DNA of 64,000 nucleotides from a virus (IMGVR_UViG_3300028886_000003:81331-145330); one strand, 5' to 3'. Numbered from the stretch's first letter, positions 13,336 through 42,184 are shown. The notes: generated from the sequence alone by a model not told the origin. Numbers and translations are program-made.

Positions 13336-13511
13336 TCCATTTTCTTATCAAATGTCTTAAAAATGCTTCTTCATCACTAATCATTGGTTCTTGATTCATC
13401 ATTTGTTCAAGTATTTCTTCTCTTGTAGGTTTTTCTCCATTATCTATATATAGTATACTCATATGTTTTGCCCAAGTAGGAAATTGTCTTTCATTCATTC
13501 TTTTAACTCCT

Positions 13512-14292: not shown

Positions 14293-14298
14293 CCTAAA

Positions 14299-18008: not shown

Positions 18009-18018
18009 TTTAAAACAC

Positions 18019-18705: not shown

Positions 18706-18719
18706 TTTATTACCTCCTT

Positions 18720-20150: not shown

Positions 20151-20162
20151 TTTTTATACCTC

Positions 20163-20426
20163 CTACCATAATGGACTAAGTAAAATATTTAAATCATCAC
20201 CATCAAGACTGTTCAATGGCTCTAAGTAAATACCTTTGTCAGCTAATATTGATTCGAAGTTATCAGATGCTTCGGCTAATAAATCAATTATACGTATTTC
20301 GCCCCAAAATGCAGCTTCTTGTCCAAGAGCATGGGTCCAACATGCATGATGTTTTTCCGCTAATTCTGATAATGTACAATATTCATCATCTTCTCCTTCT
20401 TTTGTTACTTTGTATATTAATGGCAT
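20163..20426 (-). CDS. hypothetical protein
   Basis: GGAGGT RBS. Confidence 0.55.
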   Translation of the reverse strand: MPLIYKVTKEGEDDEYCTLSELAEKHHACWTHALGQEAAFWGEIRIIDLLAEASDNFESILADKGIYLEPLNSLDGDDLNILLSPLW

Positions 20427-20431
20427 ATTTT

Positions 20432-20902
20432 TTACCTCCAGTGATATTTCATGTCGTCAAGTATTTCTTTTATAAAGTCGAAACTTAATTGTGCTTCTTC
20501 CGGCCACCAAGGATCTACATCTCTTTGTGATTCATAATTATTAGCAACTCTGTAGCATTCGTAACATTGATTTTGGTCAATATCGTATAATACTGGGGTT
20601 GCCCAGTTACTTGTTATTGCGTAACCGAATTTGGATTCTTCTAATGGTTCTGTTGGTTGTCCATCTTTTAATCCTATTGCACTGGTTTCACTCCAGTCGC
20701 CTTTGAGGCCGAAAGCTGCATTTTGAATGTCATGTGCGTGTATTAGCATTATTGCTCTTGCCCAATCAAATGTTAAAAAGGGTTTATTTTTTTTATATGC
20801 TCTTTTTGCTTTGTCTATTTTTTTTAATAAATCCTTTGCTTCTTCATCTGTTAAATCTTCAACAGTTATCTTTTTTATTGTATCTATATCCACGTATATC
20901 AC
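20432..20902 (-). CDS. hypothetical phage protein
   Basis: FDW.RA...AFGL.GDW..T...SNWATP motifs. Confidence 0.6.
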   Translation of the reverse strand: MIYVDIDTIKKITVEDLTDEEAKDLLKKIDKAKRAYKKNKPFLTFDWARAIMLIHAHDIQNAAFGLKGDWSETSAIGLKDGQPTEPLEESKFGYAITSNWATPVLYDIDQNQCYECYRVANNYESQRDVDPWWPEEAQLSFDFIKEILDDMKYHWR

Positions 20903-25630: not shown

Positions 25631-26178
25631 AAAGGTTTATATAGTAGTTTTGACAGATATTTAATTGCAAGTGTGTATGGTTGGCAAAAAAGATTTTATA
25701 CGAATGATTAAATTTATGGAGGAGATTTTTTTTCTTCTACGTGCTTTGGTTATTTATTTTTTTCTTTTTTTATTTTTTTTTTGGAAACATAAGTAACATA
25801 AATTTTTTTTATGTTTTTTATGGTAAAGTTTATATAGTAGTTTTGACAAATATATATTTGCTAATAAACTTAGTGGTTGTTTGATAATTAATTTTATCAA
25901 TTAACTATTTTTTTCTTTTTTTTTAGTAAAGTTTATATACTAGTTTTGATATATAATTAATTGTAATTTATTAGGTAGATTTTATACGAACGAAAAAAAA
26001 TGGAGGAGATTATTGTCTGATTAGTTTTCATTTTAAGAGTTCATTGGGAAGAATATTGTTTTTATTTGCATTTTTACATTCTCAGTATAGGTCTTATCTT
26101 GTTTGTTCCTAATGAACTCTATAACACCTTTTTTTAATAGAAAACTTTATATACTATTTTTAACAGATATATTAATTG
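25631..26178 (+). promoter_or_regulatory. four tandem homologous archaeal promoters (25631, 25824, 25927, 26141) without downstream ORFs
   Basis: Consensus AAAGTTTATATAsTAgTTTTgAcAgATATwTwATTG repeated four times, each unit ending in a T-tract. Confidence 0.7.
26036..26120 (+). ncRNA. putative sRNA hairpin A
   Basis: AGAGTTCATTGGGAA/TTCCTAATGAACTCT 15-bp stem enclosing a ~55-nt U-rich loop. Confidence 0.5.
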
Positions 26179-26300: not shown

Positions 26301-26941
26301 CCTCCTATTTATTTTTATAATGGAAAAAAACTTAACTATATATATAACGTCCAACAGACTATTTTTTGTGCATACTTAACTACTGTATGCATACATGGTA
26401 TTATGCCCCTTTTGATATTCTACTATTCGAAATAGCATATTACATAAAAAAATGTCACCTCCTATAAAACGTTTTAGCTGGGTAATTAATTTTTTACCTG
26501 GCTAAAATCAACTCCTTGCGGGGTCGATGTGAAATCACTACTTGTTCACTGTTTTTACTTTAATATTGAACATTTGTTTAATCAGTCTTATTTTTGCTAA
26601 ACACCATTTTTTGGTATATACAAGCATCTAGATGTGCCACGAAAGACATTTTGAGTTTGAGAACAAGATCAAATAAAACACACATATTCACCAAATACTC
26701 AATAACTATAACCCACCAATTAACCAAATAAAACGAAAGTACCCAAATAATTGAAGCTATTTTTTAGATCAAGATGAAAATCACACTAAAAAACACTGAA
26801 AAATGTGTTGAACAGTGCCCGTATATTAAAAATATCAGGTCAATTCGATAAAAAATATTTAGGCGCACCTAAAAAAACAGATGGAAACAAAAACCAGACC
26901 CTTGCGCGTATAAAAATATTAGAAAATAAAAAAACAAAAAT

Positions 26942-27091
26942 ATGAAAATCAACAACAAAACCATACTAATACTTGGACTAATAATGATCGCAATACTAAG
27001 TATGATATTTTACCATAAAGATGTAGCACTTGCAATAAGTAGTGGTCTAGTAGGTTACTTAAGTAAAGATAACCAACATAGTAAAACATAA
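26942..27091 (+). CDS. 49-aa small membrane protein
   Basis: Manual: MKINNKTILILGLIMIAILSMIFYHKDVALAISSGLVGYLSKDNQHSKT. Confidence 0.55.
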   Translation: MKINNKTILILGLIMIAILSMIFYHKDVALAISSGLVGYLSKDNQHSKT

Positions 27092-27097
27092 TAACGT

Positions 27098-27182
27098 ATA
27101 ATGATCCATACTCCTGCGACAAGTGTAAACCAACATAATATATTATTTAATACCAATTAAGAATAATGATCCATACTCCTGC
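27098..27182. repeat. 20-bp direct repeat x2 (period 65)
   Basis: ATAATGATCCATACTCCTGC at 27098 and 27163. Confidence 0.8.
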
Positions 27183-27249
27183 AGCAGGTATCTACAATGT
27201 TATATATTTATTTCACAAAAAAAATAATATTATTATGAGTATCTTTGTT

Positions 27250-27570
27250 TTATGCTTCAAAGAACTCTTTATTTACTCTGACATTAGACCATACAATAGC
27301 TTTTCTCATATATTCTTCATCTTTGTTATATCCTTCAGCCATATATTCTTCAACAGAATCAAAGCCTAACATATATGCAAATTCATCAGTCATACAACGA
27401 ATATCATACATAAAAGTATATTCAATAAATACCTCAGCAAAATATGGTTTACTAAAATCATTCATAAATTTATGATCTTTACCAGCAATAATTTTAAAAT
27501 CAGGTTTACGTAAACTTATAAATTTTTGTTTAGAACAAATTGGATCAATATTTTTCTTTTTCATTAACAT
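27250..27570 (-). CDS. hypothetical protein
   Basis: GGAGGT RBS. Confidence 0.55.
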   Translation of the reverse strand: MLMKKKNIDPICSKQKFISLRKPDFKIIAGKDHKFMNDFSKPYFAEVFIEYTFMYDIRCMTDEFAYMLGFDSVEEYMAEGYNKDEEYMRKAIVWSNVRVNKEFFEA

Positions 27571-27599
27571 AATTATACCTCCTTTAAAAATATAATAGG

Positions 27600-28295
27600 T
27601 TATAACATTGCGTCATAACCTATGTGAGCACAACAATCTCGGTACAAGTTTTTGTATTTCTTTATTGTGCTTCTTTTTCCTTGTTTATCTTCTTTTCCTC
27701 CATGTAATGTCCAGTATTCAGTGAAGCCACTAGGATAATTAGGATTGTGCCTTAATTTGGGTTGGTGAATACATACACCTCCCCATATAGTTTGATCCTG
27801 TAGTTCCTTCATTCTTTTTAATTGTTCTTTTTTGTTTATTCCATGCCAATGGTTGATCTCAAGAACAATTGTTGGACCACCAAAATATCCATGACCTTTT
27901 CTTTCAACAATACCTTTTTTATATTCGTAGTTTCTTGCGTATTTTTCTTTGAGGTTGCTTCCATGTTTTTTGATTTGGTTTTCGACAGTTCGATCCCATG
28001 CTCTTTTGAATTTTTCAATATCTCTGTCATGATCTGCATATTTAGTTACATATCTAATGCAGTTGTTTTTACCATTTTGAGGTAATACTCCATGTTTGTT
28101 TGGTTTTACTCCGCATCTTGCGGCAATTTTCATGATCTTTTCATCAGGATAACCACCGTGTGCAATACCTTTTGATCCATTTATCGCATCAAATTCTTTT
28201 TCATTTAAGCTTGGATAAGCTCTTTTACTTGATTGTTCTGCTAAACCACTTATAGCTGCTGCAGCTAAACCTACTCCGATTAAACTTAAAACCAT
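27600..28295 (-). CDS. basic hypothetical protein with N-terminal hydrophobic anchor
   Basis: 231-aa ORF, GGAGGT RBS. Confidence 0.6.
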   Translation of the reverse strand: MVLSLIGVGLAAAAISGLAEQSSKRAYPSLNEKEFDAINGSKGIAHGGYPDEKIMKIAARCGVKPNKHGVLPQNGKNNCIRYVTKYADHDRDIEKFKRAWDRTVENQIKKHGSNLKEKYARNYEYKKGIVERKGHGYFGGPTIVLEINHWHGINKKEQLKRMKELQDQTIWGGVCIHQPKLRHNPNYPSGFTEYWTLHGGKEDKQGKRSTIKKYKNLYRDCCAHIGYDAML

Positions 28296-28301
28296 ATATA
28301 T

Positions 28302-28502
28302 CTACCTCCTAACAACAGAAATGTCATAATTACGCTCTTTTAAAATAATTGAGCCAACACTCCATTCCTGATAATAAATAAATTTACTTTCACCATTTTT
28401 AATTGATCTATCAATGCTTCTAAGTAACTTTATTAATTCTTCATCACTCATATTCTCTAATCTTTTTTGAGTTTCTTGTACACTTTCAACTATTTGCATC
28501 AT
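28302..28502 (-). CDS. hypothetical protein
   Basis: Follows the TATA at ~28540-28552. Confidence 0.5.
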   Translation of the reverse strand: MMQIVESVQETQKRLENMSDEELIKLLRSIDRSIKNGESKFIYYQEWSVGSIILKERNYDISVVRR

Positions 28503-28555
28503 GTTAATCGCCTCCTAATTATAATTTTATTTCAACTACTATATAAAAGTTGTGG

Positions 28556-29566
28556 TTAGTGACCGGGTTGATCAATAGTTTCACCACTTCCTTCACTACA
28601 ATAATCACAAGCTTCACAGTTACAACTACAAAACAAGCGCTCTTCATCTTCCTCGTCACCATCTTCAATGATTTTGAAATAATTACTTCCAGGAATCATT
28701 TCATGAAGGCGTTCATTGGAAGCATTGATCTGAAGATATTGTGGACAACCATCCCAATCTAGATCATATCTAGTTGCATAAATGTAAAACCTACCACTTG
28801 GATCAATGCCATCAGCTAATAATAATTGACTTGCAATATCTACAGATTCAAATACTTTATTTAGCATAGCTTGATCAGGTATTCCACCAGTATCACAGAA
28901 TCTAATACCACGATTACCAGCTTTAATAAAATCAACCATATCAGATGCAATTACTTTGGCTGGAAGATCACGCATTTGAGCTTGTTGCCTCCAAACACGA
29001 ATACAAATGTTATGACCATGTGGCCCTTGCTCCATCTTCCTAGCATAGCAAATGTTTTTACATTGACAACCAAGTGCAATACATTCCCATCCAGTTTCTA
29101 GAGCAACATAACTCCATTTCTTACCAAGTTTTGTATTATTAGTTGGCAATTCAAGATGCTCCCAAGTAGTGGACCCATAAGTTTCTTCAAACTCTTCCAT
29201 CCACATAGGAATCTTCTTCGCCATAGTTGCAACATTTTTGTCTGAAATCTCGCTTGGCTTACCAGTTTCAATTTTATGTGTCAACTTATTAATGTTACGT
29301 TTTTGCGGCCTTGTTAAAATATTATTCTTACAGCTAGTCATTACACGGATCAAATCAGCTGCAGGTTGAAGCCCATCAATTGCATCATTAATAAACATTC
29401 TACGACCATCTTTAAGATTACGACCATAAACATTTACTTTTCTGAAGTAAGGTTTATCAGCTTTATAAATCTTTTGATTAATCCTTTTTTCATCAGGATC
29501 TTCTACATTTCTCATTCTACGGCCAAATTCTTGTCTTTTTTGTAATGTTTTATTCATATATATCAA
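28556..29566 (-). CDS. Gp88-like Cys-rich (radical-SAM-related) phage protein
   Basis: NTKLG...C......C...CYARK, IRF.DTG, FYIYATR, terminal C.CNC.AC.YC. Confidence 0.65.
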   Translation of the reverse strand: MIYMNKTLQKRQEFGRRMRNVEDPDEKRINQKIYKADKPYFRKVNVYGRNLKDGRRMFINDAIDGLQPAADLIRVMTSCKNNILTRPQKRNINKLTHKIETGKPSEISDKNVATMAKKIPMWMEEFEETYGSTTWEHLELPTNNTKLGKKWSYVALETGWECIALGCQCKNICYARKMEQGPHGHNICIRVWRQQAQMRDLPAKVIASDMVDFIKAGNRGIRFCDTGGIPDQAMLNKVFESVDIASQLLLADGIDPSGRFYIYATRYDLDWDGCPQYLQINASNERLHEMIPGSNYFKIIEDGDEEDEERLFCSCNCEACDYCSEGSGETIDQPGH

Positions 29567-29592
29567 CTCCTATTTTAAATATAAAAAAGTGA

Positions 29593-30939
29593 TTAATGAT
29601 AATGTTGTTTAATCACTTTCTCCAAACCTTTTTTGCCTGCCCAGTTTAATAACCAAGCTTTTTCTTCAGGTGTTGGATCTCTATTGTCATAACCTTTTGC
29701 TTGTTGAATACCATCATATTTTATTTCAACAGTTAATACGCTGTCATCAGGATGATCAACCTGTCTCATAAAGAGAATAATAGTTTCACCATCAAGAATT
29801 TTATCGGTATATCTTTCATACAAACAATGACTTAATTGAGTAGCCTCATTAGCAATGTCTTCAATATTTTCGGGCAATCTAATGAAGTAAGCATCTTTCT
29901 TGTATTCTAAATACTTTTTACTTTCTTTAAATTTGTTATATTCATCCATTTTTTCCTCACGATACATTAAACGTTTTAAATCCTCCATTTGGTTGTAATT
30001 GAAATGATGTTTATGATAGTATGACATCCAATTACTTGGATATTTATTCATTTTACTTCTTTTCATATTTTTCATTTCATATTCTCTCTTGAGATAATCA
30101 TCATAATTTCTCATTAGATCTTCAACAGTTACAGCTTCAAATTGAAGTTTTAAAAGATAGTTGCAGAATGCTTTTAAATCTAAGTGCCATTCACTTGCTA
30201 CTTCTAAAACACTTGTACGACCATCTCTGCCATACTCTGAATGTTTAAGATAGTTATAAGTTTGTTTATTTCCTCTATAATCAAATTTAGTAATTGAGAA
30301 CGCATCATTGTATCTTTGATCTTTAACTAATTCATCTAATTTTTTGCCCAATTGATATTGTTGTGGATTCCAATAATTTTGGGTTCGAAACAATGTATCA
30401 CTAGTTATACCATTATTTTTCTTAGAAACATTTCTTAGATATTTTATTTGTTCTTTGTCAAAATCCTTAGGATCATACCCAATATAGGACATTCCCCATC
30501 TTCTTACTTTATCAATATCACTACCATTTTGTATTCTTTCAAGACATTCATTCACCCTTTTGAAATCAATATCATGTGATAACCATTTTTCTAACGTGTC
30601 AACTTGATAAGTTGCAAAATTAGCAATATATCGAACTGGAGATTTGTATTTTAGTTTAAGACCAGCTGCATAAACAAACATCTTTGCAAATTTGTCATTA
30701 TCAGTAACTAAGCTACAACGAGTGAACCAGCTTGTAATTTTTGCAGGATCAACAATTTCAATTTTGTCTTCTCTTGTTTTGTAATGGGTTATCCTCTCAA
30801 ATTCATAACTTGATAAATCATATCTGAACTCTTTACGAGGATCTTCAGGTTTTTTAAGGGTAATATATTTACCTTCTTTGTTCATATAAATTTTATCTGC
30901 GAAAATTCCATTGTCTACTAATATTTTCATGTTAATCAT
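29593..30939 (-). CDS. PcfJ-domain protein
   Basis: C-terminal LP....DI..EA.QLSHCL...Y...I..G...ILFMR....D.S.LTVEI....IQQAKG.DNR. Confidence 0.75.
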   Translation of the reverse strand: MINMKILVDNGIFADKIYMNKEGKYITLKKPEDPRKEFRYDLSSYEFERITHYKTREDKIEIVDPAKITSWFTRCSLVTDNDKFAKMFVYAAGLKLKYKSPVRYIANFATYQVDTLEKWLSHDIDFKRVNECLERIQNGSDIDKVRRWGMSYIGYDPKDFDKEQIKYLRNVSKKNNGITSDTLFRTQNYWNPQQYQLGKKLDELVKDQRYNDAFSITKFDYRGNKQTYNYLKHSEYGRDGRTSVLEVASEWHLDLKAFCNYLLKLQFEAVTVEDLMRNYDDYLKREYEMKNMKRSKMNKYPSNWMSYYHKHHFNYNQMEDLKRLMYREEKMDEYNKFKESKKYLEYKKDAYFIRLPENIEDIANEATQLSHCLYERYTDKILDGETIILFMRQVDHPDDSVLTVEIKYDGIQQAKGYDNRDPTPEEKAWLLNWAGKKGLEKVIKQHYH

Positions 30940-30960
30940 CTCCTATTTTAATATATTTTT

Positions 30961-31800
30961 TTATAAATTAATTTCATTGTCGTAAATTTCTCTTATAATC
31001 TTAGCAATAAGATAACTTGAGAAAAGTGCAGTTTCTTCCCATATTGCATGGTGCAATGGTTTTCTTTTACTTTTACTAAATAATATCCCTCCTGCAATTG
31101 TAAAATCATCTTTATAAATATTGTAGAATTCATTAACTTCATGCTCTAATAATGAACATACATCATCACCAAATTCTCCAAATTCATTTTTAATATATTT
31201 TTCTAATGTTGGTTTATCAAATTCTTTTATAAAAGAATCTTCAACATCTGGATGAGTTGATACCCATTCAATTGCTTCATTTTTAAGATAATTCCAGCTC
31301 ATAATATACAGTGTTGGAATATCTTGTGTATTTAACCAACATATAATTGGATTATATGATATATCAGAACAATAATCCTCTATTTTGATGCATATATCAT
31401 AATAACTATATTCTGCCATTACATCTGATATCTCCTCCATATTAATAATTTTATAATCAAATTGGCCAACAATTCCATTCTCAATTTCCTTGTACCAATC
31501 TAAAAATCTAATTACATCTTTTCTTTTTCTTATATTTTGCATAATATGTGAACTAAGAGGTTCAGGATCATATTTTTCTGTCATTTGATCAATATAATAA
31601 GCAAATGCATCTAATGGAGTTCCACCTTCTTTTTCATAATCATATTTCTTAATTCCATATTCTTTTAAATTTTCTTCAATTACTTGAACTATTTTTTCTT
31701 CTATTTCATTGCATTCATCTATTTCATATTCTTTATGGTTGTAATTACATTCTTCAAACAATTTTAAATACATTTTGGTTGTCATTTTCATATTAATCAT
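30961..31800 (-). CDS. hypothetical protein
   Basis: 279-aa acidic ORF, GGAGATGA RBS. Confidence 0.6.
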   Translation of the reverse strand: MINMKMTTKMYLKLFEECNYNHKEYEIDECNEIEEKIVQVIEENLKEYGIKKYDYEKEGGTPLDAFAYYIDQMTEKYDPEPLSSHIMQNIRKRKDVIRFLDWYKEIENGIVGQFDYKIINMEEISDVMAEYSYYDICIKIEDYCSDISYNPIICWLNTQDIPTLYIMSWNYLKNEAIEWVSTHPDVEDSFIKEFDKPTLEKYIKNEFGEFGDDVCSLLEHEVNEFYNIYKDDFTIAGGILFSKSKRKPLHHAIWEETALFSSYLIAKIIREIYDNEINL

Positions 31801-31824
31801 CTCCTATTTATATAGAGAGCTATT

Positions 31825-32088
31825 TTATAGCCCTCTATTAATTTCTTTAAAAGTAATTTCATATTCATCACAAGTATATTCATGTGAAAAAGTAATACCA
31901 AGAGGTAATACTTTATCAATTTCAGCAAGAATATATTCAATATGTTCTTCATCTGTATCTATCTGACAAACAACATTGAAATTGTGATCATTAATAAATC
32001 TCCAATCAATTGCATTTTTCTCAACTATATTTTCAATTGCTCTTATTGTTTCTAATAACATATTATCTCCTCCTTTAAAATACAACAA
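31825..32088 (-). CDS. hypothetical protein
   Basis: ORF track; likely start MLLETI. Confidence 0.5.
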   Translation of the reverse strand: MLYFKGGDNMLLETIRAIENIVEKNAIDWRFINDHNFNVVCQIDTDEEHIEYILAEIDKVLPLGITFSHEYTCDEYEITFKEINRGL

Positions 32089-32374
32089 TTTTCTTTATAT
32101 CTTTTAATTCATATTCTATCTGTGGATATTCTCTTCTTATCAGAATTAACTTATCAAATTCTTCTATCAATCTCTCACATAAATGCCCTATGTGATTATC
32201 ATCGACAAATTCAATATATACACCCATATTAGGTTGCATAATTTCAAAACTGTCTTCACCACAGTCAGGTGTATATTTAACTTTCCTAATTGGAAATTTA
32301 CTTTTCATTTGTACATTGTACTCTGGATCTTTGTTCAAAGTTGCTCTATTTTCATTAATTAAATCTAAAATCAT
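32075..32374 (-). CDS. hypothetical protein
   Basis: GAGGTGA RBS. Confidence 0.55.
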   Translation of the reverse strand: MILDLINENRATLNKDPEYNVQMKSKFPIRKVKYTPDCGEDSFEIMQPNMGVYIEFVDDNHIGHLCERLIEEFDKLILIRREYPQIEYELKDIKKIVVF

Positions 32375-32384
32375 TTAAATCACC

Positions 32385-32627
32385 TCATAATCCCATATTC
32401 ATTTTAGCGGCAAATCTACCATTTCCATCAGTAATAATTTCAATATCACCAGGGCACATGCCACCCATAGCTTTAACCATTTTTAATGATTCAGCTAATT
32501 TATTCAAAAATTCTTCTTGTGTGGTGTTATCATCATAACAGAAAGCACCACCCATAACAACATCAATAGATGCTGTTTTAATTACTACAATTTCTCTTCT
32601 TTCGATTTTAGTTATTAATTCATTCAT
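32385..32627 (-). CDS. hypothetical protein
   Basis: GAGGTGA RBS. Confidence 0.55.
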   Translation of the reverse strand: MNELITKIERREIVVIKTASIDVVMGGAFCYDDNTTQEEFLNKLAESLKMVKAMGGMCPGDIEIITDGNGRFAAKMNMGL

Positions 32628-32662
32628 TTAAATCACCTCAAATATATATTTTTAAGAGGGGG

Positions 32663-33472
32663 TTAATAAACCCTCTCATAATTATGACGACCTGTGATTA
32701 ATTCAAGTTCATCAGGTCCAATACGCTCAACAAATACAAAATTACCTTCTAATACTTCAATTATTCTATATGAAGTATATGGATTTAAGAAATAATCATA
32801 ATCTCTCACCTCTTGGTTAGTCCAAATACTATTTGTAATTCCTAATCTTTTTAATTGATTAAGTTTTTTGTCTGATTGCATAAGAATACCATAACTGTAT
32901 CCATTTTCATCAGATACAAGATGAACAGTTCCTTTGTCACCTGGTTCACGATGGGATTCTTTTACTCTTTCTCCATCTACAATTTTACCTCTCCATTTTC
33001 TTTCAAGATGGCATATTTCACCAACATGTGGTTTTACACCATCTTTATGTGCTAATTGATGTCTTAATCCACCAATAATTAGATCAGCATTTTTTGCTTT
33101 ATCTGATATAATGGATTTATTAGCACTTATAGTTAAATCTCTAATTTGTTCGTTTTTCATTTTTTCTATACAGAATGAGTATTCATTCATATCAATCACC
33201 TCAGCATATATATATTTGTTATACTTTTTATGAAGAACAACTTTACATTGTTCAACATTTGATATTCTACTAAGTAGTTCAGTATTATTGACTACTTTTT
33301 TGCCACCAGCTCTACTAACATAACCAATATGGTTATTATTTGAAAGAACCATAATTGCATTAGTGTCATAGCTGTTTGTAGGTTCTCTAACTAGTGAGAG
33401 AACACTATTTTCATCAACATTGTCAAATGCTTCTTTGTGGTGATTTCCACCACTTACTCTTATTCTTAACAT
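32663..33472 (-). CDS. HIRAN-domain protein (tandem HIRAN-like)
   Basis: LSLVREPTNSYDTNAIMV...HIGYV. Confidence 0.75.
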   Translation of the reverse strand: MLRIRVSGGNHHKEAFDNVDENSVLSLVREPTNSYDTNAIMVLSNNNHIGYVSRAGGKKVVNNTELLSRISNVEQCKVVLHKKYNKYIYAEVIDMNEYSFCIEKMKNEQIRDLTISANKSIISDKAKNADLIIGGLRHQLAHKDGVKPHVGEICHLERKWRGKIVDGERVKESHREPGDKGTVHLVSDENGYSYGILMQSDKKLNQLKRLGITNSIWTNQEVRDYDYFLNPYTSYRIIEVLEGNFVFVERIGPDELELITGRHNYERVY

Positions 33473-33505
33473 AATATCACCTCATAAAAATAATAAAAGA
33501 GAGAA

Positions 33506-34162
33506 TTACTCTCTTTTTAAAACAAATCTGTGAGTTGCCTCATCTACAATTTTCCTCCATTCTTTTCCACTAATTTCGAACTTATAATCCCAAATAGTGG
33601 TATTATAACCATTTTCATCTTCTCTTTTATTGACAACTGCAGTAAGCAACTCTACATTACTTAAACATTCAATAACCTCATCGAAGTTATCATGGAAAAG
33701 AATATCATTGACAAAATCTTCATGAACATCAGGAGATAAAAACAAATCAATATTATCTAAAAGATATTGTCTAATATCTTGACTTGTCTTTTCTTCAAAC
33801 CATATTTCAAGACCTTGATCGAAATTCCAATTTCTTGAAATATCTGATGTAAAATGTTGTCTAATGCTTTCTTCATCAATTTCTTTTAATTCTTTATATG
33901 TTGTATTGTTCATATTACCATCTCCTAAGAAAAATTTGTTCATTTCTGGCCACAAAGTATATAAATCATACCAAGGGTCCATTGCTGCTTGCTTTTCATC
34001 ATATAATTCATATTTCTTAGCAAGCTCTTCTAATTCTACATATTTTTCGTTGTAAACATCAATTACTTCTTGTGGTCCACAACTTAAATCTTCTTCATCA
34101 CAAATTTGTATAAAACCTATTGTTTTGAAAAATTTAATTGCATCTTCTTTCATTTTAATCAC
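33506..34162 (-). CDS. hypothetical protein
   Basis: GAGGTGA RBS. Confidence 0.6.
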   Translation of the reverse strand: MIKMKEDAIKFFKTIGFIQICDEEDLSCGPQEVIDVYNEKYVELEELAKKYELYDEKQAAMDPWYDLYTLWPEMNKFFLGDGNMNNTTYKELKEIDEESIRQHFTSDISRNWNFDQGLEIWFEEKTSQDIRQYLLDNIDLFLSPDVHEDFVNDILFHDNFDEVIECLSNVELLTAVVNKREDENGYNTTIWDYKFEISGKEWRKIVDEATHRFVLKRE

Positions 34163-34321
34163 CTCAAATATTGATGCAGAGGTTATTCTACCTCTACATC
34201 TTTACAGTCAACACACATTTCACCATATGAACCACAATTGTGGCTATCATGGTTTCTACATTCTTTTCCATCGAAATGGATACACTTTTTGTATTCGTCT
34301 TCATATATCATTTAAAACACC

Positions 34322-34522
34322 TCATAATTCAATTATAATCATCTTTCTACCTACAATTTCTTTTTCTTCTGATGTAAGTTCATCAAATATCTCAGCCAAG
34401 TAATATTCAGTTACTTTTCTGATATATTTTATAGATTGTTCATCTACAATTACATCATTCAAAAATTCTTCATGATATCTTGTTGGTATTATTTCTAAAT
34501 ATTCTTCTATTTCTTTGCCCAT
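34322..34522 (-). CDS. hypothetical protein
   Basis: GAGGTGA RBS. Confidence 0.5.
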   Translation of the reverse strand: MGKEIEEYLEIIPTRYHEEFLNDVIVDEQSIKYIRKVTEYYLAEIFDELTSEEKEIVGRKMIIIEL

Positions 34523-34547
34523 ATAATCACCTCAATTTGTTTAAAAA

Positions 34548-34580
34548 TAAGCAGTTGTTAAGGGAGGGTACTCAGCTCCC
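34548..34580 (-). promoter_or_regulatory. cis-acting H-type pseudoknot motif, copy B
   Basis: GGGAG-CTGAGTACC-CTCCC-TTAACAAC-TGCTTA. Confidence 0.6.
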
Positions 34581-34594
34581 AAGATTTAACAGTT

Positions 34595-34795
34595 TTATTC
34601 CCAAAACATATTATCAAGAATGTCAGATTTGGGAAGTGCATCAATAGAACTTGCATACTGGCCAAATTTCATACATTTTACCGCAGGAATAAATCTCCTA
34701 CTTTCTGAAAGTCCATGTTGTTTTATTACAACAATGCTTTCATCTTCGATTAACATTTCACATTCCATACAATTGTTACAACAGTTTCTTTTCAT
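34595..34795 (-). CDS. Cys-rich hypothetical protein
   Basis: GAGGTGA RBS. Confidence 0.5.
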   Translation of the reverse strand: MKRNCCNNCMECEMLIEDESIVVIKQHGLSESRRFIPAVKCMKFGQYASSIDALPKSDILDNMFWE

Positions 34796-34805
34796 TTAAA
34801 TCACC

Positions 34806-35048
34806 TCATTCTTCTAAAATAATTTTTCTATTACTAAATACAATACTTTTAATATTATTAAAAGTAGTATCTCTACATCTAACAACATCTTCAATACCAT
34901 ATTTTTGATAAGATACAGCATTGATGATGTGATGCATTGCTACTTGATCACATTCTTCATATAGCCAAAGCATTTGAGCTTTTTTAGCTAAAGAAAGAAG
35001 AGATAAAGGAGGCAATTCCTTTAAATCTTCAAAATTTATTTCAATCAT
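34806..35048 (-). CDS. hypothetical protein
   Basis: GAGGTGA RBS. Confidence 0.5.
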   Translation of the reverse strand: MIEINFEDLKELPPLSLLSLAKKAQMLWLYEECDQVAMHHIINAVSYQKYGIEDVVRCRDTTFNNIKSIVFSNRKIILEE

Positions 35049-35057
35049 ATTATCACC

Positions 35058-35366
35058 TCAGTATTTGTAATCCCAAGTGTAGGAATCTATGTAGACATCC
35101 AATTCCTCTTGAATATCCCATATTTTTTGTTGAACTAGCTCATTAATCTTACGATCAATTTCTTCTAGTTCTTTAATGCCACATTCTCTTAATTGTCTTT
35201 GAAGAGTATTAACCCTCATATCAGGGTCAAGTTCTACACTATCCATAAAATCTTGCAATGACTCTCCCTCAAAGGCTAAACCTCCAACTAAAGGGTCATC
35301 ATCATCTTCTAACAATATTTCTTTTCTTTGTGCTATTGTTGGGTAAATATCTTCTATTTTTACCAT
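35058..35366 (-). CDS. hypothetical protein
   Basis: GAGGTGA RBS. Confidence 0.55.
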   Translation of the reverse strand: MVKIEDIYPTIAQRKEILLEDDDDPLVGGLAFEGESLQDFMDSVELDPDMRVNTLQRQLRECGIKELEEIDRKINELVQQKIWDIQEELDVYIDSYTWDYKY

Positions 35367-35394
35367 TTAAATCACCTCTATTAAGAAGAAGAGT

Positions 35395-35754
35395 TTATAA
35401 ATACTCTTCTTCAATTATATTCCAAATTTTATATGCTCTATCAGGTATAGGCCCAGTTACATGTCCTAATCTATCACATATGGTTTCCATACATAAATGA
35501 TAGAAATCTTCATCATTGGCATTTTCAAAATCCTGATAAACTTCCTCAGCAATTATGCCATTTTCATTGAATTCACTTGTATTAATAATTACTGCGATCT
35601 CTTCTTCGTTGGTATTAAATACAGTATCAAAACCAATTTCTTCAGCTTTGCAACGGTGAGTTTCTTTTACAAAAACTTCACCATTTTCATTGTTTTCATA
35701 CACATTTACTGCTCCAAGAACAGTACCTTTTTCATTTACTATTTTTAAAATCAT
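35395..35754 (-). CDS. hypothetical protein
   Basis: True start MILKIV after GAGGTAG RBS. Confidence 0.55.
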   Translation of the reverse strand: MILKIVNEKGTVLGAVNVYENNENGEVFVKETHRCKAEEIGFDTVFNTNEEEIAVIINTSEFNENGIIAEEVYQDFENANDEDFYHLCMETICDRLGHVTGPIPDRAYKIWNIIEEEYL

Positions 35755-35775
35755 ATTATCTACCTCATTAAATAT

Positions 35776-35803
35776 TGAATAGTTTAAGGACATATTCAGG
35801 TCC
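35776..35803 (-). promoter_or_regulatory. cis-acting H-type pseudoknot motif, copy C
   Basis: GGAC-CTGAATAT-GTCC-TTAAAC-TATTCA. Confidence 0.6.
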
Positions 35804-36023
35804 AAAGGAGTTTATCTCCAAAATATATCATCTCTCCAATCATCGTCATTATATTTATTAAGACAATGATTTCTCCTATATTTTCTTTGTTCTTCACTTA
35901 TGGGATCACACCATAAGGATTCCAATAATGATGTAATGCTTTTAATCATTATCATCATCCTCACATTGTTTACAATATTCGCAATCACAGAGGCAACTTT
36001 CTGCCTCTGCTATAATCCAAGTT

Positions 36024-36416
36024 TTATTCATTTTCATCACCTCTTAATTCTTCTATTTCTATACCTTCATTTTTAAAAATTTCGATATAAACTTCTTTTT
36101 TTTCTTTACTATGTGGTTCACAATTATTTAATATAATTGGCATTACTGGATCAATAACATCTTTCCACATTTTTCTACAATGAAAACGTAGCATTCTTTC
36201 TTGTATTTTTTGAATATCATCAACATATCTTATAATATCGTAAATTTCTCTTAGTACTAATATTTCTGCTACTGTTTCTGCTTCACATTCCCAGAACCAA
36301 TTATATAATATTTCAATTATATCAAAACCATCTATGGAATCCATATCTAAATCATACATACTAAAATGGTCTTTTATACTTCTTATAACTGGGTGGTAAC
36401 CATATTTAAATCTCAT
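36024..36416 (-). CDS. hypothetical protein
   Basis: GGAGGA RBS. Confidence 0.55.
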   Translation of the reverse strand: MRFKYGYHPVIRSIKDHFSMYDLDMDSIDGFDIIEILYNWFWECEAETVAEILVLREIYDIIRYVDDIQKIQERMLRFHCRKMWKDVIDPVMPIILNNCEPHSKEKKEVYIEIFKNEGIEIEELRGDENE

Positions 36417-36767
36417 ATTCTATTCCTCCAATATTTAGAAGTGGAATTATATTTCCACTCCATCTACATCTTTATTATATTTACATATAACAAAGTTTTG
36501 AAAATCAACAGCACAAGTACATTTGTGGCATAAATTATGCCTAATTTCTTCGTTTGCATTATGGCAAACATTATAATAATTTTTTTTCATAATATCATCT
36601 CATAATAGTTGGGATTATAAAATAACCCCAACTTTTTCAAGATCTTTAACACCTTTTTTATTAAAATCTTTTTGTTCGACAGTCTGAGTACCTTTTTTGT
36701 TAGCAGCATTTAAATGTGCTAACATGTTTCTACTAAATTTTTTCATTTGAAACACCTCTATTTAATT

Positions 36768-36795
36768 TAAGCAGTTTAATGACATACTTAGGTCA
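36768..36795 (-). promoter_or_regulatory. cis-acting H-type pseudoknot motif, copy A
   Basis: TGAC-CTAAGTAT-GTCA-TTAAAC-TGCTTA. Confidence 0.6.
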
Positions 36796-37134
36796 TAAAA
36801 TCAACTATTCACATACTCTGATTTGGGTATAAATCCCATCAGAGTAGTTCTCAACCCCATTATATATTGGGGTCCACCCATCCCTCACAAGGGCATCCAA
36901 ATCGCCCTGTGAGTAATCATGAACTCCACTACCAATGATTTTATCATTGATAATGGCAATTTGCCTACAATTCATACTTTTGCCTCCTTGTTAATTCTGT
37001 ATTCTTCTTTATTGAATACAGAAAAGTTTCTGCAAGCTTCTTCTAATACATCAACAGATGTATTATGTTTAACACATCTTCCACAGTAAAAATGACTGCA
37101 TTTACCATGGATATAGTCATTTCTTCTCATATAA

Positions 37135-37353
37135 TCACCATCCATCAAGAGTATTTTTGTTTTCTTTTTTTGTTAATATTGCTCTTAATTTGTAAAAAGA
37201 CTGTGGTAGGAAGAACCTACCATATACATAGATTGATACATTAGAATCAGAGTATTCATACTCTTCTTCTATTGCATCTAGCCTAGAGCAGAGTTTTTTT
37301 GCCTCTACCCTAGCTTGTGCATTTTTTTTGAGTATCTTATTTTCTCTATTCAT
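37135..37353 (-). CDS. hypothetical protein
   Basis: AGGTGA RBS. Confidence 0.5.
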   Translation of the reverse strand: MNRENKILKKNAQARVEAKKLCSRLDAIEEEYEYSDSNVSIYVYGRFFLPQSFYKLRAILTKKENKNTLDGW

Positions 37354-37473
37354 TATATCACCTTTTTATTCTTCGTGATATAGAGTCAATGGCTCTATAT
37401 CATCGTCAATTTCGACAAAGAGCATAAAATGCCCTTTGCCGTTACAAATGAGAATATCTTCTTTGTTTAACAT

Positions 37474-38793
37474 TTATATCACCTCCTTATTCATTTTGCA
37501 TTCTCTTTCTTCTTCCTCTTTGAGGAATTTCTTAGAGGCTTTTAATGAAGCCTCTGTGAAGAACTCCTCCATATCTACTTCTTCTATGATGTGCTCATAG
37601 TAGAAGTAGGCATTGATACTAATCCATGCTCTCATATGGTCAAACTCTGCACCTGAAATTTGACCATTTAAGTATCTTTTGGCAATAGTATCATCTATTG
37701 CTCTTAGTGTGAGCAATATATTACCAACTGGGTGTATTTCGAGGTACTTGGTGGTATATGCCATTACCTCTACTGGATATTCTTTTTTTGCCCGATTGAA
37801 TGCTCCAAGAAGTCCATCTTGTTGCATTTCCACCACCATAATTGGTGTTTTTCTATCCATTACACTTTGTGTAATGGTTTCTTTTGTAATTTTTTCTAAT
37901 TTTTCTTCCATACTTTCACTTTTTTCTTCAACAATTTCTTTTTGTGGCAATCTAACTGTTGCCACTTTTCTAAATCCACCATATGCATCACACATATGGT
38001 CTAAGAAGTGAATTTTTACAGATAAGTCTGCATTTACTTCAATATCTGTTATTTCACCTCCACTTTTTATAATGCTCTTACATTTTTGTTCTACTAAGTC
38101 TTTAAGTTCTTTGTTCATTATTTCATCTCCATTTTCTTCTTTTAAATCTTCTTCTTCTAAGTCTTTGAGGAAGATATATTTATCTTCCTCAATGTAGCTC
38201 ACTACAAATACATTCTCTAATGTATTGAAATCGGCTCTACCAAACCGATTTAATACAATTGGAGCACCAATTGACTCCAATTCTTTTATTTTTTTGTCAG
38301 ATTGAGGGAGTACACCTAATGCCCCTTCTTCATTAAAAAGAGTAGTTGTACCATTAATAACTTTAAATCTTACAATATCACCAACATTAGCATTAGTGGA
38401 ATGATATTTAGTGCCTACAACTGTGTATGTACTCTCTACTGCCTCTGTTGGAAGAACAGAGGTTTTTTCTTCAAGTTCTACTGTGAGGATTACAAAATTC
38501 CTCACAATATCTTTAACAATTGCTTTAACAATGGTAAAACCATCATTAATTAATTGTTTAAGCTCTGAGGACAAAATAGTATCCTCAGAACATATTTTTC
38601 GTGGAATGTAGTGTGGATTTTCTGCCACACTACCTAATTTGACACCATTGGTATCTAACACTGAAAATGCATTCTGAGAGTATGTATTTTCAGAATCGAA
38701 TTCAACTACTACTTCCATATTAATATCAAAGGCACTAATGCCTTGATAGTATTTTACACCAGTTGTAATAACTTCTTTTATCATTTGCATCAC
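37474..38793 (-). CDS. tandem HIRAN-like domain protein
   Basis: TGVKYY...DSENTYSQNAFSV...KLGSV; second domain TVVGTKYH...GVLPQSDKK, paralogous to 32663-33472. Confidence 0.65.
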   Translation of the reverse strand: MMQMIKEVITTGVKYYQGISAFDINMEVVVEFDSENTYSQNAFSVLDTNGVKLGSVAENPHYIPRKICSEDTILSSELKQLINDGFTIVKAIVKDIVRNFVILTVELEEKTSVLPTEAVESTYTVVGTKYHSTNANVGDIVRFKVINGTTTLFNEEGALGVLPQSDKKIKELESIGAPIVLNRFGRADFNTLENVFVVSYIEEDKYIFLKDLEEEDLKEENGDEIMNKELKDLVEQKCKSIIKSGGEITDIEVNADLSVKIHFLDHMCDAYGGFRKVATVRLPQKEIVEEKSESMEEKLEKITKETITQSVMDRKTPIMVVEMQQDGLLGAFNRAKKEYPVEVMAYTTKYLEIHPVGNILLTLRAIDDTIAKRYLNGQISGAEFDHMRAWISINAYFYYEHIIEEVDMEEFFTEASLKASKKFLKEEEERECKMNKEVI

Positions 38794-38801
38794 TTAAAAT
38801 T

Positions 38802-38977
38802 GTTTGTTTGAGCGATATTGGACGGACTACTTGTAGTTGCTGAGGCTACAAGGTTTCCGTTCTGTATTGACACTGTGGACAGATTATTGGGTGCTTCAAG
38901 TCCAATAAAGACTCCACAGTGCCCAGAACTGAGAGAAAAGCACTCACAGTACAATTCGCCTCAGCAGCGAAGCAGGC
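38802..38977 (+). ncRNA. highly structured pseudoknotted element (ncRNA or ssDNA signal)
   Basis: Seven helices plus a loop-tail pseudoknot (TGCTGAG 38838-44 / CTCAGCA 38960-66), GC-rich against background, followed by a T-tract. Confidence 0.55.
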
Positions 38978-39067
38978 TTATTTTTTAAAATTGGTTGAAA
39001 AAATCGAGTGTCCTACTGTACTGTCCTACAATCTTGTTTAACAATATTAGAACCCAAACAATCAACC

Positions 39068-39403
39068 ATGACAGGACAAGACATAATAGAAGGAATCATA
39101 ACAAAAGCAGATTTCGGCTATGGAATGAAATACAAAGACGAAGAAAACTTATATCTAAAACTAGACATACAACAATTCGATGGATACGAATGCGTACAAT
39201 TATTGAGCGAAGAAAAAATAGGTAAACTACTATTGCAATTCAGAGGAGATTATCATGGAGAATGCTCAATATCAACATTAGTACACAGAAGAGTATACCT
39301 ACTTAATGCAGAACAAACAAATGGTGTCCCTGACGCAATAGCAAAACTACCACCATCCGAATACGTTCAATACGACTGGATATATAACGATAACTGGAAT
39401 TAA
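39068..39403 (+). CDS. hypothetical protein
   Basis: Likely start MTGQDIIEG within the track ORF 39008-39403. Confidence 0.55.
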   Translation: MTGQDIIEGIITKADFGYGMKYKDEENLYLKLDIQQFDGYECVQLLSEEKIGKLLLQFRGDYHGECSISTLVHRRVYLLNAEQTNGVPDAIAKLPPSEYVQYDWIYNDNWN

Positions 39404-40498: not shown

Positions 40499-41707
40499 TT
40501 ATGCATTAGAATTGCATCGAGCATTAATTTCATTCTTACACAACTCTCCTAACTCAAACCAATCCTCCAACTCCTCATTACTATACAACACACGTCCTTC
40601 AGGTTCAATATCAACTTTCTCACCCAACAAATTAACACTAATAATCTTATTTTTATCAAAATCAATCTTAGGACTTTTTAAACATCTTGCTTTATCAGGA
40701 CGTTGAATACGATAACCAGACCCTGCAAAACCACCTTTAAAACAATTAACCACCAACAAACCATTAACCCCAAACCTTCTCCAATCAGCACGCAAAATAC
40801 CTTCACTTAATCCACGCACAAGAACATCACCACCAAAAAAGCCAACTGCCTCAACAATTTCCCCCCAATTCCAACAAACACGCCAAGCAGCCTTACTATG
40901 CTTGCTATGATACAATAAACCTAACCTATTAAATAAAGGATCATTACCACAATTATAAGTACCACTCCTAACACAATCAATAGCATTGCCATCTTCATCA
41001 ATTAAAAAAATACCTTCATCATTATCCTCCCAAGTCCAATACCTATTAAACTTAGTAACAACTACAGGAAAAAAAACACCTGATACAAAATCAGAAACAG
41101 GCGGCATATAAATAATAGGCAAATCAGGAATCAACTTAATATTCGTTACTTGCTTTTGATGATACAAAGTATAAATCTGACACAAAATACCAAAAATAGC
41201 ATCATCACCCTGCATTCTATAAGTTAACAAAGCACTATTAAAATCAAAATCCAAATCAGGAACCTTCATTAACGCCTCAAGATACTCTTCAAAATCAACA
41301 TTACTCTCCCACAATTCCTTCAAAGGTTCTTTAGCCCAAATAGGAAACTCCAAATTTTCAACACACTTTCTAATTTTTGTCTGATACTTATCAATATCCA
41401 TCTCAACATACTTAATCTTATGCGAAATATCTTTATAACAAAAAATCAACAAACCAAGAAAAAAAGAAACATGTTTCGAAAAATCATGATTAATACCAGC
41501 CTTAATCGATTGAAAAAGTAATCTTGCAGCAGATGCATCAATAGTAACATTAATAATGTGTCCAGCCATATTACTATTACCTCGCCTTTTCTTCATTTTA
41601 TAAACATTACCATAACCTCCGCCAAGATCATATGTCCTAAAATCACGCTTTAAAAAAGGTTTCTCAACAATATCAGCAAAATGATAAGGATTTATATATC
41701 TTGGCAT
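40499..41707 (-). CDS. hypothetical protein, possibly a degenerate ATP-dependent ligase fold
   Basis: 402-aa ORF; FPVVVTKFNR, AIDC...G....NDPLFNRLGLL, GDVLVRG...DWRRF resemble ligase motifs I, IIIa, IV and V but lack KxDG. Confidence 0.55.
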   Translation of the reverse strand: MPRYINPYHFADIVEKPFLKRDFRTYDLGGGYGNVYKMKKRRGNSNMAGHIINVTIDASAARLLFQSIKAGINHDFSKHVSFFLGLLIFCYKDISHKIKYVEMDIDKYQTKIRKCVENLEFPIWAKEPLKELWESNVDFEEYLEALMKVPDLDFDFNSALLTYRMQGDDAIFGILCQIYTLYHQKQVTNIKLIPDLPIIYMPPVSDFVSGVFFPVVVTKFNRYWTWEDNDEGIFLIDEDGNAIDCVRSGTYNCGNDPLFNRLGLLYHSKHSKAAWRVCWNWGEIVEAVGFFGGDVLVRGLSEGILRADWRRFGVNGLLVVNCFKGGFAGSGYRIQRPDKARCLKSPKIDFDKNKIISVNLLGEKVDIEPEGRVLYSNEELEDWFELGELCKNEINARCNSNA

Positions 41708-42054
41708 TATTCAATCACTCCTTGATTCTTTAATTGCTTAATATAACTATCAACAGTACGAGGATTCAAATTTAATTTATTAGCAATATCTTTTTTACTT
41801 AACCCTTGCTTAAGCAAATTAAAAGTCTGCCTAACACGAACATCACGATTCTGAGTAGGCACATCATCAATACGAGATTTATTCCCCTCAGAAATATACC
41901 TCTGTATCTTACTTCTTGTTAAACCAGTAGTTTCAGAAATAACACGCAAACTATACCCTTTTTCCCATAATTCATCAATATTATCCCAAAGAGTACCCTT
42001 CATCTTTTTATAATCTCTTCTTGCATTTTTAACTCTAGTTTCAAAATCTTCCAT
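41707..42054 (-). CDS. double helix-turn-helix DNA-binding protein
   Basis: GYSLRVISETTGLTRSKIQRYI and GLSKKDIANKLNLNPRTVDSYI. Confidence 0.8.
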   Translation of the reverse strand: MEDFETRVKNARRDYKKMKGTLWDNIDELWEKGYSLRVISETTGLTRSKIQRYISEGNKSRIDDVPTQNRDVRVRQTFNLLKQGLSKKDIANKLNLNPRTVDSYIKQLKNQGVIE

Positions 42055-42184
42055 AATACAAACCTCATTTTTTAATTATTTTTCTAAAAAATATAAAGTA
42101 GGACATATGGAAAAAAACACAAGTATAAATAACTTTAAATACTAGAAAATATATATTTAATAAGTTTAGATAAAGTGGACAAAA

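Follow-up and report, generated by a model that had tools for sequence, protein, structure and literature searches.

A fast-diverging pseudoknotted element, perhaps a leader RNA, at a predicted divergent promoter of a large rumen virus

What is the G+C-rich, noncoding segment of about 175 nt that separates two divergently oriented gene blocks in a large virus, and which strand of it, if either, is used as RNA? We addressed this question in a 64,000-nt stretch of DNA (here called the window; bases 81331 to 145330 of the 145,330-bp IMG/VR virus record IMGVR_UViG_3300028886_000003, which has direct terminal repeats). A preliminary description of the window, made without database searches, had proposed that the segment (here called the element) is a multi-helix, G+C-rich structure of a novel kind. 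Our results agree with that proposal: the element folds beyond shuffled sequences, is conserved in homologues, and belongs to no Rfam family.

The element has a G+C content of 46 to 47% (versus roughly 30% in the genome), is single copy in the genome, and is one of only two noncoding GC islands in the window, the other being a tRNA cluster. The minimum free energy (MFE) is -63.1 kcal/mol for the plus strand (z = -3.7) and -61.0 kcal/mol for the minus strand (z = -4.9) relative to dinucleotide shuffles, and none of 200 shuffles reached the native fold energy on either strand. Across the tested family sequences, z-scores ranged from -3.4 to -5.1. The parts of the element are as follows (motifs are written as on the plus strand unless marked otherwise; P denotes a helix, PK a pseudoknot, and group 1 the closest relatives described below).

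38968 to 38984, minus strand: 5' end of the proposed minus-strand RNA, with the motif AAUAAG(C/U)C (plus strand, G(A/G)CTT(A/G)TT), invariant in 7/7 versions
38968 to 38974, minus strand: PK-A partner segment of the tail (plus strand, CGAAGCA), pairs with the P4 apical loop
38958 to 38966, minus strand: PK-B partner segment of the tail (plus strand, GCCTCAGCA), pairs with the P2 apical loop and holds the invariant CCTC (GAGG on the minus strand)
38928 to 38950, minus strand: P5 hairpin (ACTG.GAG / CTC.CAGT), conserved loop A(A/T)AAGCA (minus strand, UGCUU(A/U)U)
38871 to 38921, minus strand: P4 two-tier hairpin with a 4x4 internal loop and an 11-nt apical loop at 38891-38901 (PK-A)
38871-79/38913-21: P4 lower stem, CACTGTGGA/TCCACAGTG
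38884-90/38902-08: P4 upper stem, TTATTGG/CCAATAA
38859-64/38924-29, minus strand: P3 alternative helix, GTTCTG/CAGAAC, encloses P4, overlaps the 3' arm of the P2 outer stem, formed in the minus-strand MFE structure
38820 to 38862, minus strand: P2 hairpin with a conserved 3x3 internal loop (plus strand, CTA/GTT) and an apical loop at 38837-45 (PK-B)
38820-26/38856-62: P2 outer stem (P2a), GGACGGA/TCCGTTC
38830-36/38846-52: P2 inner stem, CTTGTAG(T)/(G)CTACAAG
38810 to 38820, minus strand: P1 arm (plus strand, GAG.CG..ATTG), pairs with 38952-38962 (CAAT.CG.CTC), closes the multi-helix domain in group 1
38794 to 38809, minus strand: A-rich linker CAAACAAACAAUUUUAA, between the structured domain and a GUGAU Shine-Dalgarno (SD)-like site (38789-93) plus the left-gene start codon
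38981 to 38986, plus strand: run of six T residues (T6)
38985 to 39067, no strand assigned: A/T-rich putative divergent promoter region

The helices that the preliminary description had listed can all be located in the sequence (among them GGACGGA/TCCGTTC, CACTGTGGA/TCCACAGTG, TTATTGG/CCAATAA, and TGAG/CTCA within 38928-50, together with T6), as can its alternative GTTCTG/CAGAAC helix (P3). Two of them did not survive comparison with relatives: the closing stem GTTTGTTT/AAGCAGGC contains two A.C mismatches in relative L022 and one U.C mismatch in relative L038, and the TGTATTG/CAGTACA helix is broken in L022 (CAGCCCA).

Searches of the whole window against Rfam 15 (4,227 models, covering hammerhead, HDV, twister, pistol, hatchet, glmS, GIR1, RNase P, SRP, tmRNA, 6S, pRNA, omega and tracr RNAs, and riboswitches) returned only four tRNAs above the gathering thresholds. 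A permissive Rfam search of positions 38700 to 39100 yielded just three microRNA-hairpin rows (15 to 16 bits; E = 1.6 to 4.2; thresholds, 65 to 80). These searches bear out the earlier failure to match the element to known RNA cores, and no ribozyme core was matched. A blastn search of phage GenBank entries with the element gave no match, and we found no description of this RNA in the literature. On these grounds we class the element as a putative new RNA family, outside any Rfam family.

Relatives were found through exact-protein look-ups of cluster members of o111 (the plus-strand gene to the right of the element) and one metagenome pattern scan. Seven distinct versions in three structural groups were recovered, all from ruminant gut assemblies (loci are denoted by L numbers). 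Group 1 comprises the window, L022 (= L050; 92% identical), and L038 (84% identical); group 2 comprises L039 (= L042 and L043) and L040 (= L041), in which blastn detects just the right-hand promoter region; and group 3 comprises L044 and L051 (= L052), which are as diverged as group 2. The pattern scan of metagenomes gave one true match (L038) and 15 chance matches in high-GC contigs, pattern scans of IMG/VR for the element gave chance matches or none, and searches from the left-hand HIRAN gene alone and from o111 alone found no related loci. Four relatives identified by the large terminase gene terL (L002 to L005; terL 61 to 72% identical; synteny of o402, o115, o620, and terL kept) have no element in the compared DNA.

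A covariance model (R1) built from the three close sequences recovered L044, L040, L051, and L039 at 20.8 to 28.6 bits, in the correct position and orientation. A lone weak R1 match in L002 (18.4 bits) lies in 29%-GC sequence. The automatic R1 alignment (A7) took in a reverse-strand self-match and missed two members, and it was excluded from pair counts. Between the window and L022, a 116-nt core is 100% identical, compared with about 92% for flanking coding DNA. Across groups, the stems have unrelated sequences and an unchanged layout; P5 and P4 occur in all versions, and P2 is missing from group 3. The P2 outer stem covaries (GGACGGA/TCCGTTC in the window, TAAGAA/TTCTTA in L038, and CGAAGA/TCCTCG in L039), as does the inner stem (CTTGTAG/CTACAAG versus CTCAATGG/CCATTAAG). 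The P4 architecture is kept with unrelated stem sequences in L039, L040, L044, and L051. P5 exists in five forms, including ACTGTGAG/CTCACAGT (L022), ACTGAG/CTCAGT (L038), GGGG..GAGTTA/TAACTC..CCCC (L039), and GGAG/CTCC (L044 and L051). P1 covaries within group 1 (GTTGAAAT/ATTTCAAC in L038; GAGG..TTGG/CCAA..CCTC in L022), while the group 2 closing helix, TTTTGCCA/TGGCAAAA, differs from P1 in topology. The P3 counterpart in L039 is GTAGG/CCTAC.

The strongest signal is PK-A, in which the P4 apical loop pairs with a tail segment just inside the conserved G(A/G)CTT(A/G)TT end. This pairing occurs as five different pairs (TGCTTC/GAAGCA, CGCCTCCCG/CGGGAGGCG, CGCGTCCC/GGGACGCG, CCCCCCG/CGGGGGG, and CCCCGCG/CGCGGGG), each of which is matched by 0 to 52 of 2,000 loop shuffles; compensating changes distinguish two of them (L039/L040 and L044/L051). 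The idea of a loop-to-distal pseudoknot is thereby strengthened. The pairing originally proposed (loop TGCTGAGG, 38838-45, with distal CCTCAGCA, 38959-66) corresponds to PK-B; it is strong in group 1 (8 to 9 bp; 2 to 4 of 2,000 shuffles reach it in the window and L022), weak in group 2 (5 bp), and absent from group 3, which has no P2. Four unpaired motifs are invariant (the P5 loop, CCTC, the P2 3x3 loop, and GCTTAT). A small open reading frame (ORF) behind the conserved GAGG was considered and dropped; no ORF is kept there. A third pairing, PK-C, between the terminal GCTTAT and the P5 loop (ATAAGC), is complementary in most versions, but its changes are non-compensating and its strand signal is mixed, so we list it as a possibility only.

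The comparisons indicate that the element forms a conserved single-strand fold, with two or three hairpins and loop-to-tail pseudoknots that are kept by compensatory change in diverged homologues. In groups 1 and 2, the P4-loop/tail and P2-loop/tail pairings together are predicted to make a compact double pseudoknot. The protein o111 is at least 90% identical between viruses whose element diverges beyond sequence recognition.

This pattern bears on the view that the element acts as DNA (i.e., as a replication origin, a site of single-strand initiation or packaging, or a cruciform bound by protein at a divergent promoter). Its position at a switch in gene orientation and AT skew, its neighbours (an OB-fold [oligonucleotide/oligosaccharide-binding fold] gene resembling single-strand-binding [SSB] proteins and two TGTCCTAC repeats), and the good folding of both strands are compatible with such a role. 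However, pairing of a loop with a distant tail, with compensatory change in five versions, speaks for a folded single strand, and recognition of a duplex needs none of it; the asymmetry of G.U and A.C pairs between the strands (see below) likewise indicates one folded strand. No direct-repeat families, iterons, or AT-rich unwinding element were found inside the element. The preliminary description had placed it at a transcriptional divergence and skew flip. The genes are divergent, and AT skew does change sign at the element, but GC skew shows no clean flip, the AT-skew change merely tracks A-rich coding strands, and cumulative GC skew reaches its minimum near 42 kb; the D5-type primase gene is 16 kb distant from the element. 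Direct terminal repeats and a large terminase gene are present in the genome, the element stands 25 kb from the record end, and L002 to L004, which share the packaging module, have no copy in the compared DNA. We found no positive evidence for the single-stranded DNA origin or packaging signal suggested earlier, and we regard a DNA-level function as very unlikely.

The RNA is probably read from the minus strand, since z-scores, RNAalifold, the wobble tally, and mirror covariance models agree. The z-score is better on the minus strand in five of six sequences. RNAalifold energy and structure conservation index are better on the minus strand in all three groups (e.g., group 2, -68.3 versus -43.5 kcal/mol). 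In the hand-defined helices, the minus strand has 13 G.U pairs and 9 mismatches, versus 5 G.U pairs and 17 mismatches on the plus strand; six internal A.C mismatches of the plus strand become G.U pairs on the minus strand, and one changes in the reverse direction. At 38926, G>A in L022, L038, and run X4 makes a P3 pair G.U on the minus strand and C.A on the plus strand. The preference of wobble pairs for the plus strand that had been noted from the window holds for this one sequence, but the family favours the opposite strand. Mirror covariance models built from the same three sequences scored the four diverged relatives at 28.6, 24.4, 23.9, and 20.8 bits on the minus strand and at 20.3, 17.8, 12.7, and 19.3 bits on the plus strand.

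The arrangement around the element is consistent with this orientation. Its immediate neighbours are the following.

37474 to 38793, minus strand: HIRAN-domain protein, first gene of the leftward block (Pfam HIRAN, E = 1.7e-09; likely ATG at 38784 or 38790)
39068 to 39403, plus strand: o111, a 111-aa OB-fold protein with no Pfam or PHROG family, right neighbour in 6/7 versions

The element is thus flanked on the left by a minus-strand gene that starts at about 38784 to 38793 and on the right by the plus-strand o111 ATG at 39068. Reading along the minus strand, all seven versions present the element, a 16- to 23-nt A-rich linker, an (A/G)GTGA(T/A) ribosome-binding site, and an ATG. The genes so entered belong to at least four unrelated families (those of the window and L038 both encode HIRAN proteins, 73% identical over about 210 aa), and no run of five or more T residues lies between the element and the left gene, L038 excepted. 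A metatranscriptome contig that exactly matches positions 38548 to 38940 spans the beginning of the left gene and most of the element. A second HIRAN-domain protein is encoded in the same leftward block (32663-33472, minus strand).

We lean toward reading the element as a structured, cis-acting RNA of about 175 nt on the minus strand, serving as the 5' leader of the leftward (early-type) operon. Transcription would start just to the right of 38984, from a weak A/T-rich promoter set back-to-back with that of o111, and the transcript would run through the element and the A-rich linker to a GGUGA-type ribosome-binding site and whichever left gene is first. The tied-up 5' segment could shield the RNA end against 5'-end-dependent decay; alternatively, the fold could be a platform for a viral or host factor that controls or times early operon expression. 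The first gene varies between relatives, and the leader would therefore act on the transcript as a whole, so that sensing of something tied to one gene seems unlikely. No complement of the ribosome-binding site was seen by eye inside the element, which makes a simple occlusion switch unlikely.

Oligo-T tracts are transcription termination signals in archaea, and the T-run pattern of this genome fits such use: sense-strand runs of at least six T residues are avoided within gene blocks and concentrated at block ends. In the leftward block (26600-38790, minus strand), there are 6 such T runs versus 34 A runs; the T runs cluster at 26788-27224 and 29583, which are likely operon ends. Their avoidance inside the block suits a single archaeal transcription unit. 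An antitermination role for the leader was considered and judged unlikely, because an operon that already avoids T-run terminators has no evident need of it.

Several observations weigh against the minus-strand leader. The RNA-run contigs that cover the element (X3 and X10) are unstranded, with a depth of 2 to 4 over it, so that DNA carry-over is possible; they leave 38941 to 39086 uncovered and reveal neither the strand nor the start and end of a transcript. We saw no good TATA box at the spacing expected before the proposed minus-strand start, which makes the promoter assignment weak. The window's plus-strand MFE is slightly below that of the minus strand, L044 has its better z-score on the plus strand, one internal P2a pair (window and L022) is G.U on the plus strand and A.C on the minus strand, and the helices used in the wobble tally were defined by eye. 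A plus-strand run of five or six T residues, which would resemble a terminator for an archaeal plus-strand RNA, follows the element in three of the seven versions. The family sample consists of these seven sequences from a narrow clade, and the shielding or regulatory-platform role is our best guess, drawn from genomic context.

Some of these observations would suit a plus-strand RNA, either a stand-alone small RNA of about 175 nt (from near 38806 to the T run at 38981-86) or a long o111 leader. In the latter form, an operator for the SSB-like protein would consist of the pseudoknot domain plus some 85 nt of A/U-rich RNA reaching to an AUG without an SD sequence, much as in the T4 gene 32 leader; in a switch form, a local GC hairpin of the tail beside the T run would compete with both pseudoknots. 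T6 in the window and T5 in L039 and L040 follow the element in a genome that otherwise avoids sense T runs, and the tail does contain such a hairpin (e.g., CACGCC-GGGA-GGCGTG in L039), whose two arms are the segments that pair with the P2 and P4 loops. Several versions have TATA-like octamers (TTTATATC and ATTATATC) some 30 nt ahead of the P1 arm; they overlap, however, the spacer between the SD site and ATG of unrelated left genes, the window's own octamer is poor, and no AAANNTTTATATA-type promoter occurs near the element with up to one mismatch. The T run noted in the preliminary description does not hold up in the family: T6 is confined to the window, two relatives have T5, and the other four have T2 to T4. 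The depth of the RNA-run reads over the element is no higher than that of its neighbours, and thus no abundant stable RNA was seen.

The gene o111 speaks for the leader form, as the right neighbour in 6/7 versions and as an OB-fold gene. Its AlphaFold model has a pLDDT (predicted local distance difference test) score of 90.6, and Foldseek placed PrgE of pCF10, an SSB-like protein, first, then CsaA/Trbp111, S12, and other OB folds, all as weak matches (E of about 0.01; TM score, 0.5). Nevertheless, o111 has its own conserved upstream region. Positions 39019 to 39075 are 100% identical to L022, the right-hand region is conserved in 6/7 versions, and a TATA-like box, TTTAACAATATTAG, stands about 30 nt before the SD-less o111 ATG; this region looks like the promoter of a leaderless o111 mRNA. 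Homologues of o111 form at least 42 clusters in ruminant gut assemblies. The gene occurs without the element in L016 to L021, L053, and L054 (in co-directional gene runs), and L038, conversely, has the element and lacks o111; their association is thus not obligate. The near constancy of o111 beside a rapidly diverging element also weighs against the plus-strand reading. Since all four family-level strand tests point to the minus strand as well, we view a plus-strand RNA as a possible but doubtful alternative to the minus-strand leader.

Three observations on o111 and its promoter region can be added. The 8-nt sequence TGTCCTAC forms direct repeats at 39009-16 and 39022-29, a tandem pair that all seven versions share, and may serve as an operator or as a BRE-like site (BRE, B recognition element). 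The sequence recurs at 42098-42105 (minus strand), abutting a TTTATATT box upstream of a 115-aa helix-turn-helix gene (41707-42054), and it has six copies genome-wide versus three for a reversed control. One o111 homologue (59% identical) lies on a 41-kb contig (L054; JAFYBZ010000008.1) that is filed in a sheep rumen "Clostridia bacterium" metagenome-assembled genome; a scan of the genome collection for o111 gave this contig as the sole real relative. It is probably a mis-binned viral contig: the host evidence given below (i.e., pseudomurein-binding repeats, promoters, and the tRNA intron) suggests that the Clostridia bin is an artefact.

Other candidate features around the element were rejected. 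A direct repeat on either side of the element, TTAAAATTG(T/G)TTG, which might have been the target-site duplication of an insertion, is lacking in relatives. An inverted motif (CAATAT-N-CAAACAA) precedes each of the two start codons by 25 nt, but only in the window. GC-rich gaps in two loci with o111 and no element (L020:2190-2350 and L021:1434-1592) correspond to an uncalled Cys-rich ORF of about 52 aa (MNEKTCQNCKH...) and hold no RNA element.

A catalytic or ligand-sensing RNA on either strand (i.e., a ribozyme that processes the leader by self-cleavage, or a riboswitch controlling the operon) would likewise accord with the compact, multi-pseudoknotted architecture. Mutually exclusive helices (P2a versus P3, and the tail hairpin versus PK-A and PK-B) and the few invariant unpaired motifs fit it too. 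Yet no Rfam ribozyme or riboswitch matched up to E = 10, group 3 lacks P2, the eye search found no SD complement, and sequence turnover is quick beside a protein at least 90% identical, unlike in known aptamer or catalytic cores. We consider this the least probable of the explanations weighed here. A bolder and, in our view, unlikely form of the RNA reading is that the element is the founding member of a class of archaeal-virus RNAs whose knotted fold has an activity of its own, being more than a passive leader. The terminal strand would be zipped by the apical loops of successive hairpins, P4 and P2 and possibly P5 (AUAAGC/GCUUAU), and the fold might block archaeal 5'-3' exonucleases, reprogram archaeal RNA polymerase or the ribosome toward the early operon, or act as a catalyst.

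The virus to which the element belongs is most likely a tailed virus of roughly 145 kb that infects a pseudomurein-walled rumen methanogen. Near-identical DNA is present in bovine gut runs, and a relative occurs in a goat gut run. The following features describe its genome.

From 42 kb onward, plus strand: structural and packaging genes (large terminase, portal, major head protein, and tail sheath)
Leftward genes, minus strand: D5-type primase, two HIRAN proteins, and a PcfJ-like protein
21436 to 23247, minus strand: D5-type primase gene, 16 kb from the element
1053 to 1787, minus strand: cluster of five tRNA genes (Ser-GCT, Arg-TCG, Trp-CCA, Leu-TAG, and Thr-TGT)
G000:C1:35075-36043, outside the window (= L056:1279-2247): 322-aa ORF with pseudomurein-binding repeats (PMBR), pointing to a Methanobacteriales-type host

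The host assignment follows from the PMBR repeats, BRE/TATA promoters, an intron-bearing tRNA, and the avoidance of sense-strand T runs. The repeats (PF09373) score 36.7 bits versus a cut-off of 24.9 in the 322-aa ORF; a search of the genome gave no Pei peptidase domain (PF12386). Exact AAANNTTTATATA boxes (BRE/TATA promoters) are oriented sense to adjoining genes. The anticodon loop of the tRNA-Thr gene (1677-1787) is interrupted by a 36-nt intron, which is an archaeal-type trait within a viral genome; the gene was missed by ARAGORN at default settings and caught by Rfam and by the intron mode. Four repeats of a near-consensus archaeal BRE/TATA unit, (A/T)AA(A/G)(G/C/T)TTTATATA(G/C)TAGTTTTGA, lie at 25631-26153 (plus strand), each followed by a short ORF-less sequence and long T runs. 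Positions 10073 to 20432 comprise 10 kb without an ORF of at least 150 aa (code 11), in which reading TAG as Q or using code 4 opens no long frames; GC skew there is -0.27 to -0.49, and the region presumably holds a run of very small genes.

To our knowledge, almost nothing is known of structured noncoding RNA in methanogen viruses, and complex leaders are poorly charted in archaea. The element is located at what appears to be the principal divergent promoter of this large virus of a rumen methanogen, and it may offer a way into early gene control in the viruses that attack the rumen's main producers of methane. Its pairings persist although its sequence changes much faster than that of the adjoining protein gene, which makes it a natural case for studying how RNA tertiary contacts evolve. 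Shielding of a 5' end, or action on the transcription or translation machinery, would if true be a new mechanism for archaea. Its distribution is so far narrow (seven versions in one clade of ruminant gut viruses).

How does the element compare with known systems? In the phage leader that forms the translational operator of T4 gene 32, a pseudoknotted domain likewise precedes an unstructured A/U-rich stretch that extends to the gene start, and an OB-fold gene is adjacent here. The T4 operator, however, consists of one small H-type pseudoknot, which precedes the SSB gene itself, whereas the element has about 175 nt, two or three hairpins, and two loop-tail pairings, and its favoured strand enters unrelated genes. 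The put RNAs of HK022 and other leaders (nut and EAR) are folded RNAs right after an early promoter in a divergent early-promoter region, and they act on the whole operon with any gene following; in contrast, put RNAs are about 70 nt long, consist of two stem-loops that form no pseudoknot, and target bacterial RNA polymerase, while the host here appears to be archaeal.

Flavivirus exonuclease-resistant RNAs (xrRNAs) and the 5' stabilizers of bacterial and phage mRNAs share with the element a terminal strand tied by pseudoknots with downstream hairpins and a compact 5'-proximal fold. The xrRNAs are ring folds of about 70 nt from eukaryotic viruses, with no sequence or Rfam relation to the element. 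The phi29-type pRNA (packaging RNA; RF00044) is a phage RNA of similar length whose loops covary with a complementary partner, and a pRNA-like role had been suggested for the element. In phi29, however, loops pair between molecules to form a ring at the portal, in small podoviruses with protein-primed replication and no classical large terminase. Here a loop pairs with the tail of its own molecule, and the 145-kb virus bears a sheath and encodes a large terminase of the T4 type; the element lies away from the genome ends, RF00044 gave no match, and the suggestion was not sustained. The kissing-loop RNAs that control replication of the plasmids ColE1 (RNA I/RNA II) and R1 (CopA/CopT) also have fast-evolving loops that keep their complementarity, with lineage-specific pairing, but they pair in trans, as sense and antisense of a primer or leader, and the pairing here is within one strand with no adjacent replication gene. 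Judged by sequence and position, the element thus resembles phage leader RNAs in where it stands and xrRNA-type folds in its pseudoknot-tied end, and it appears to be a member of none of these families.

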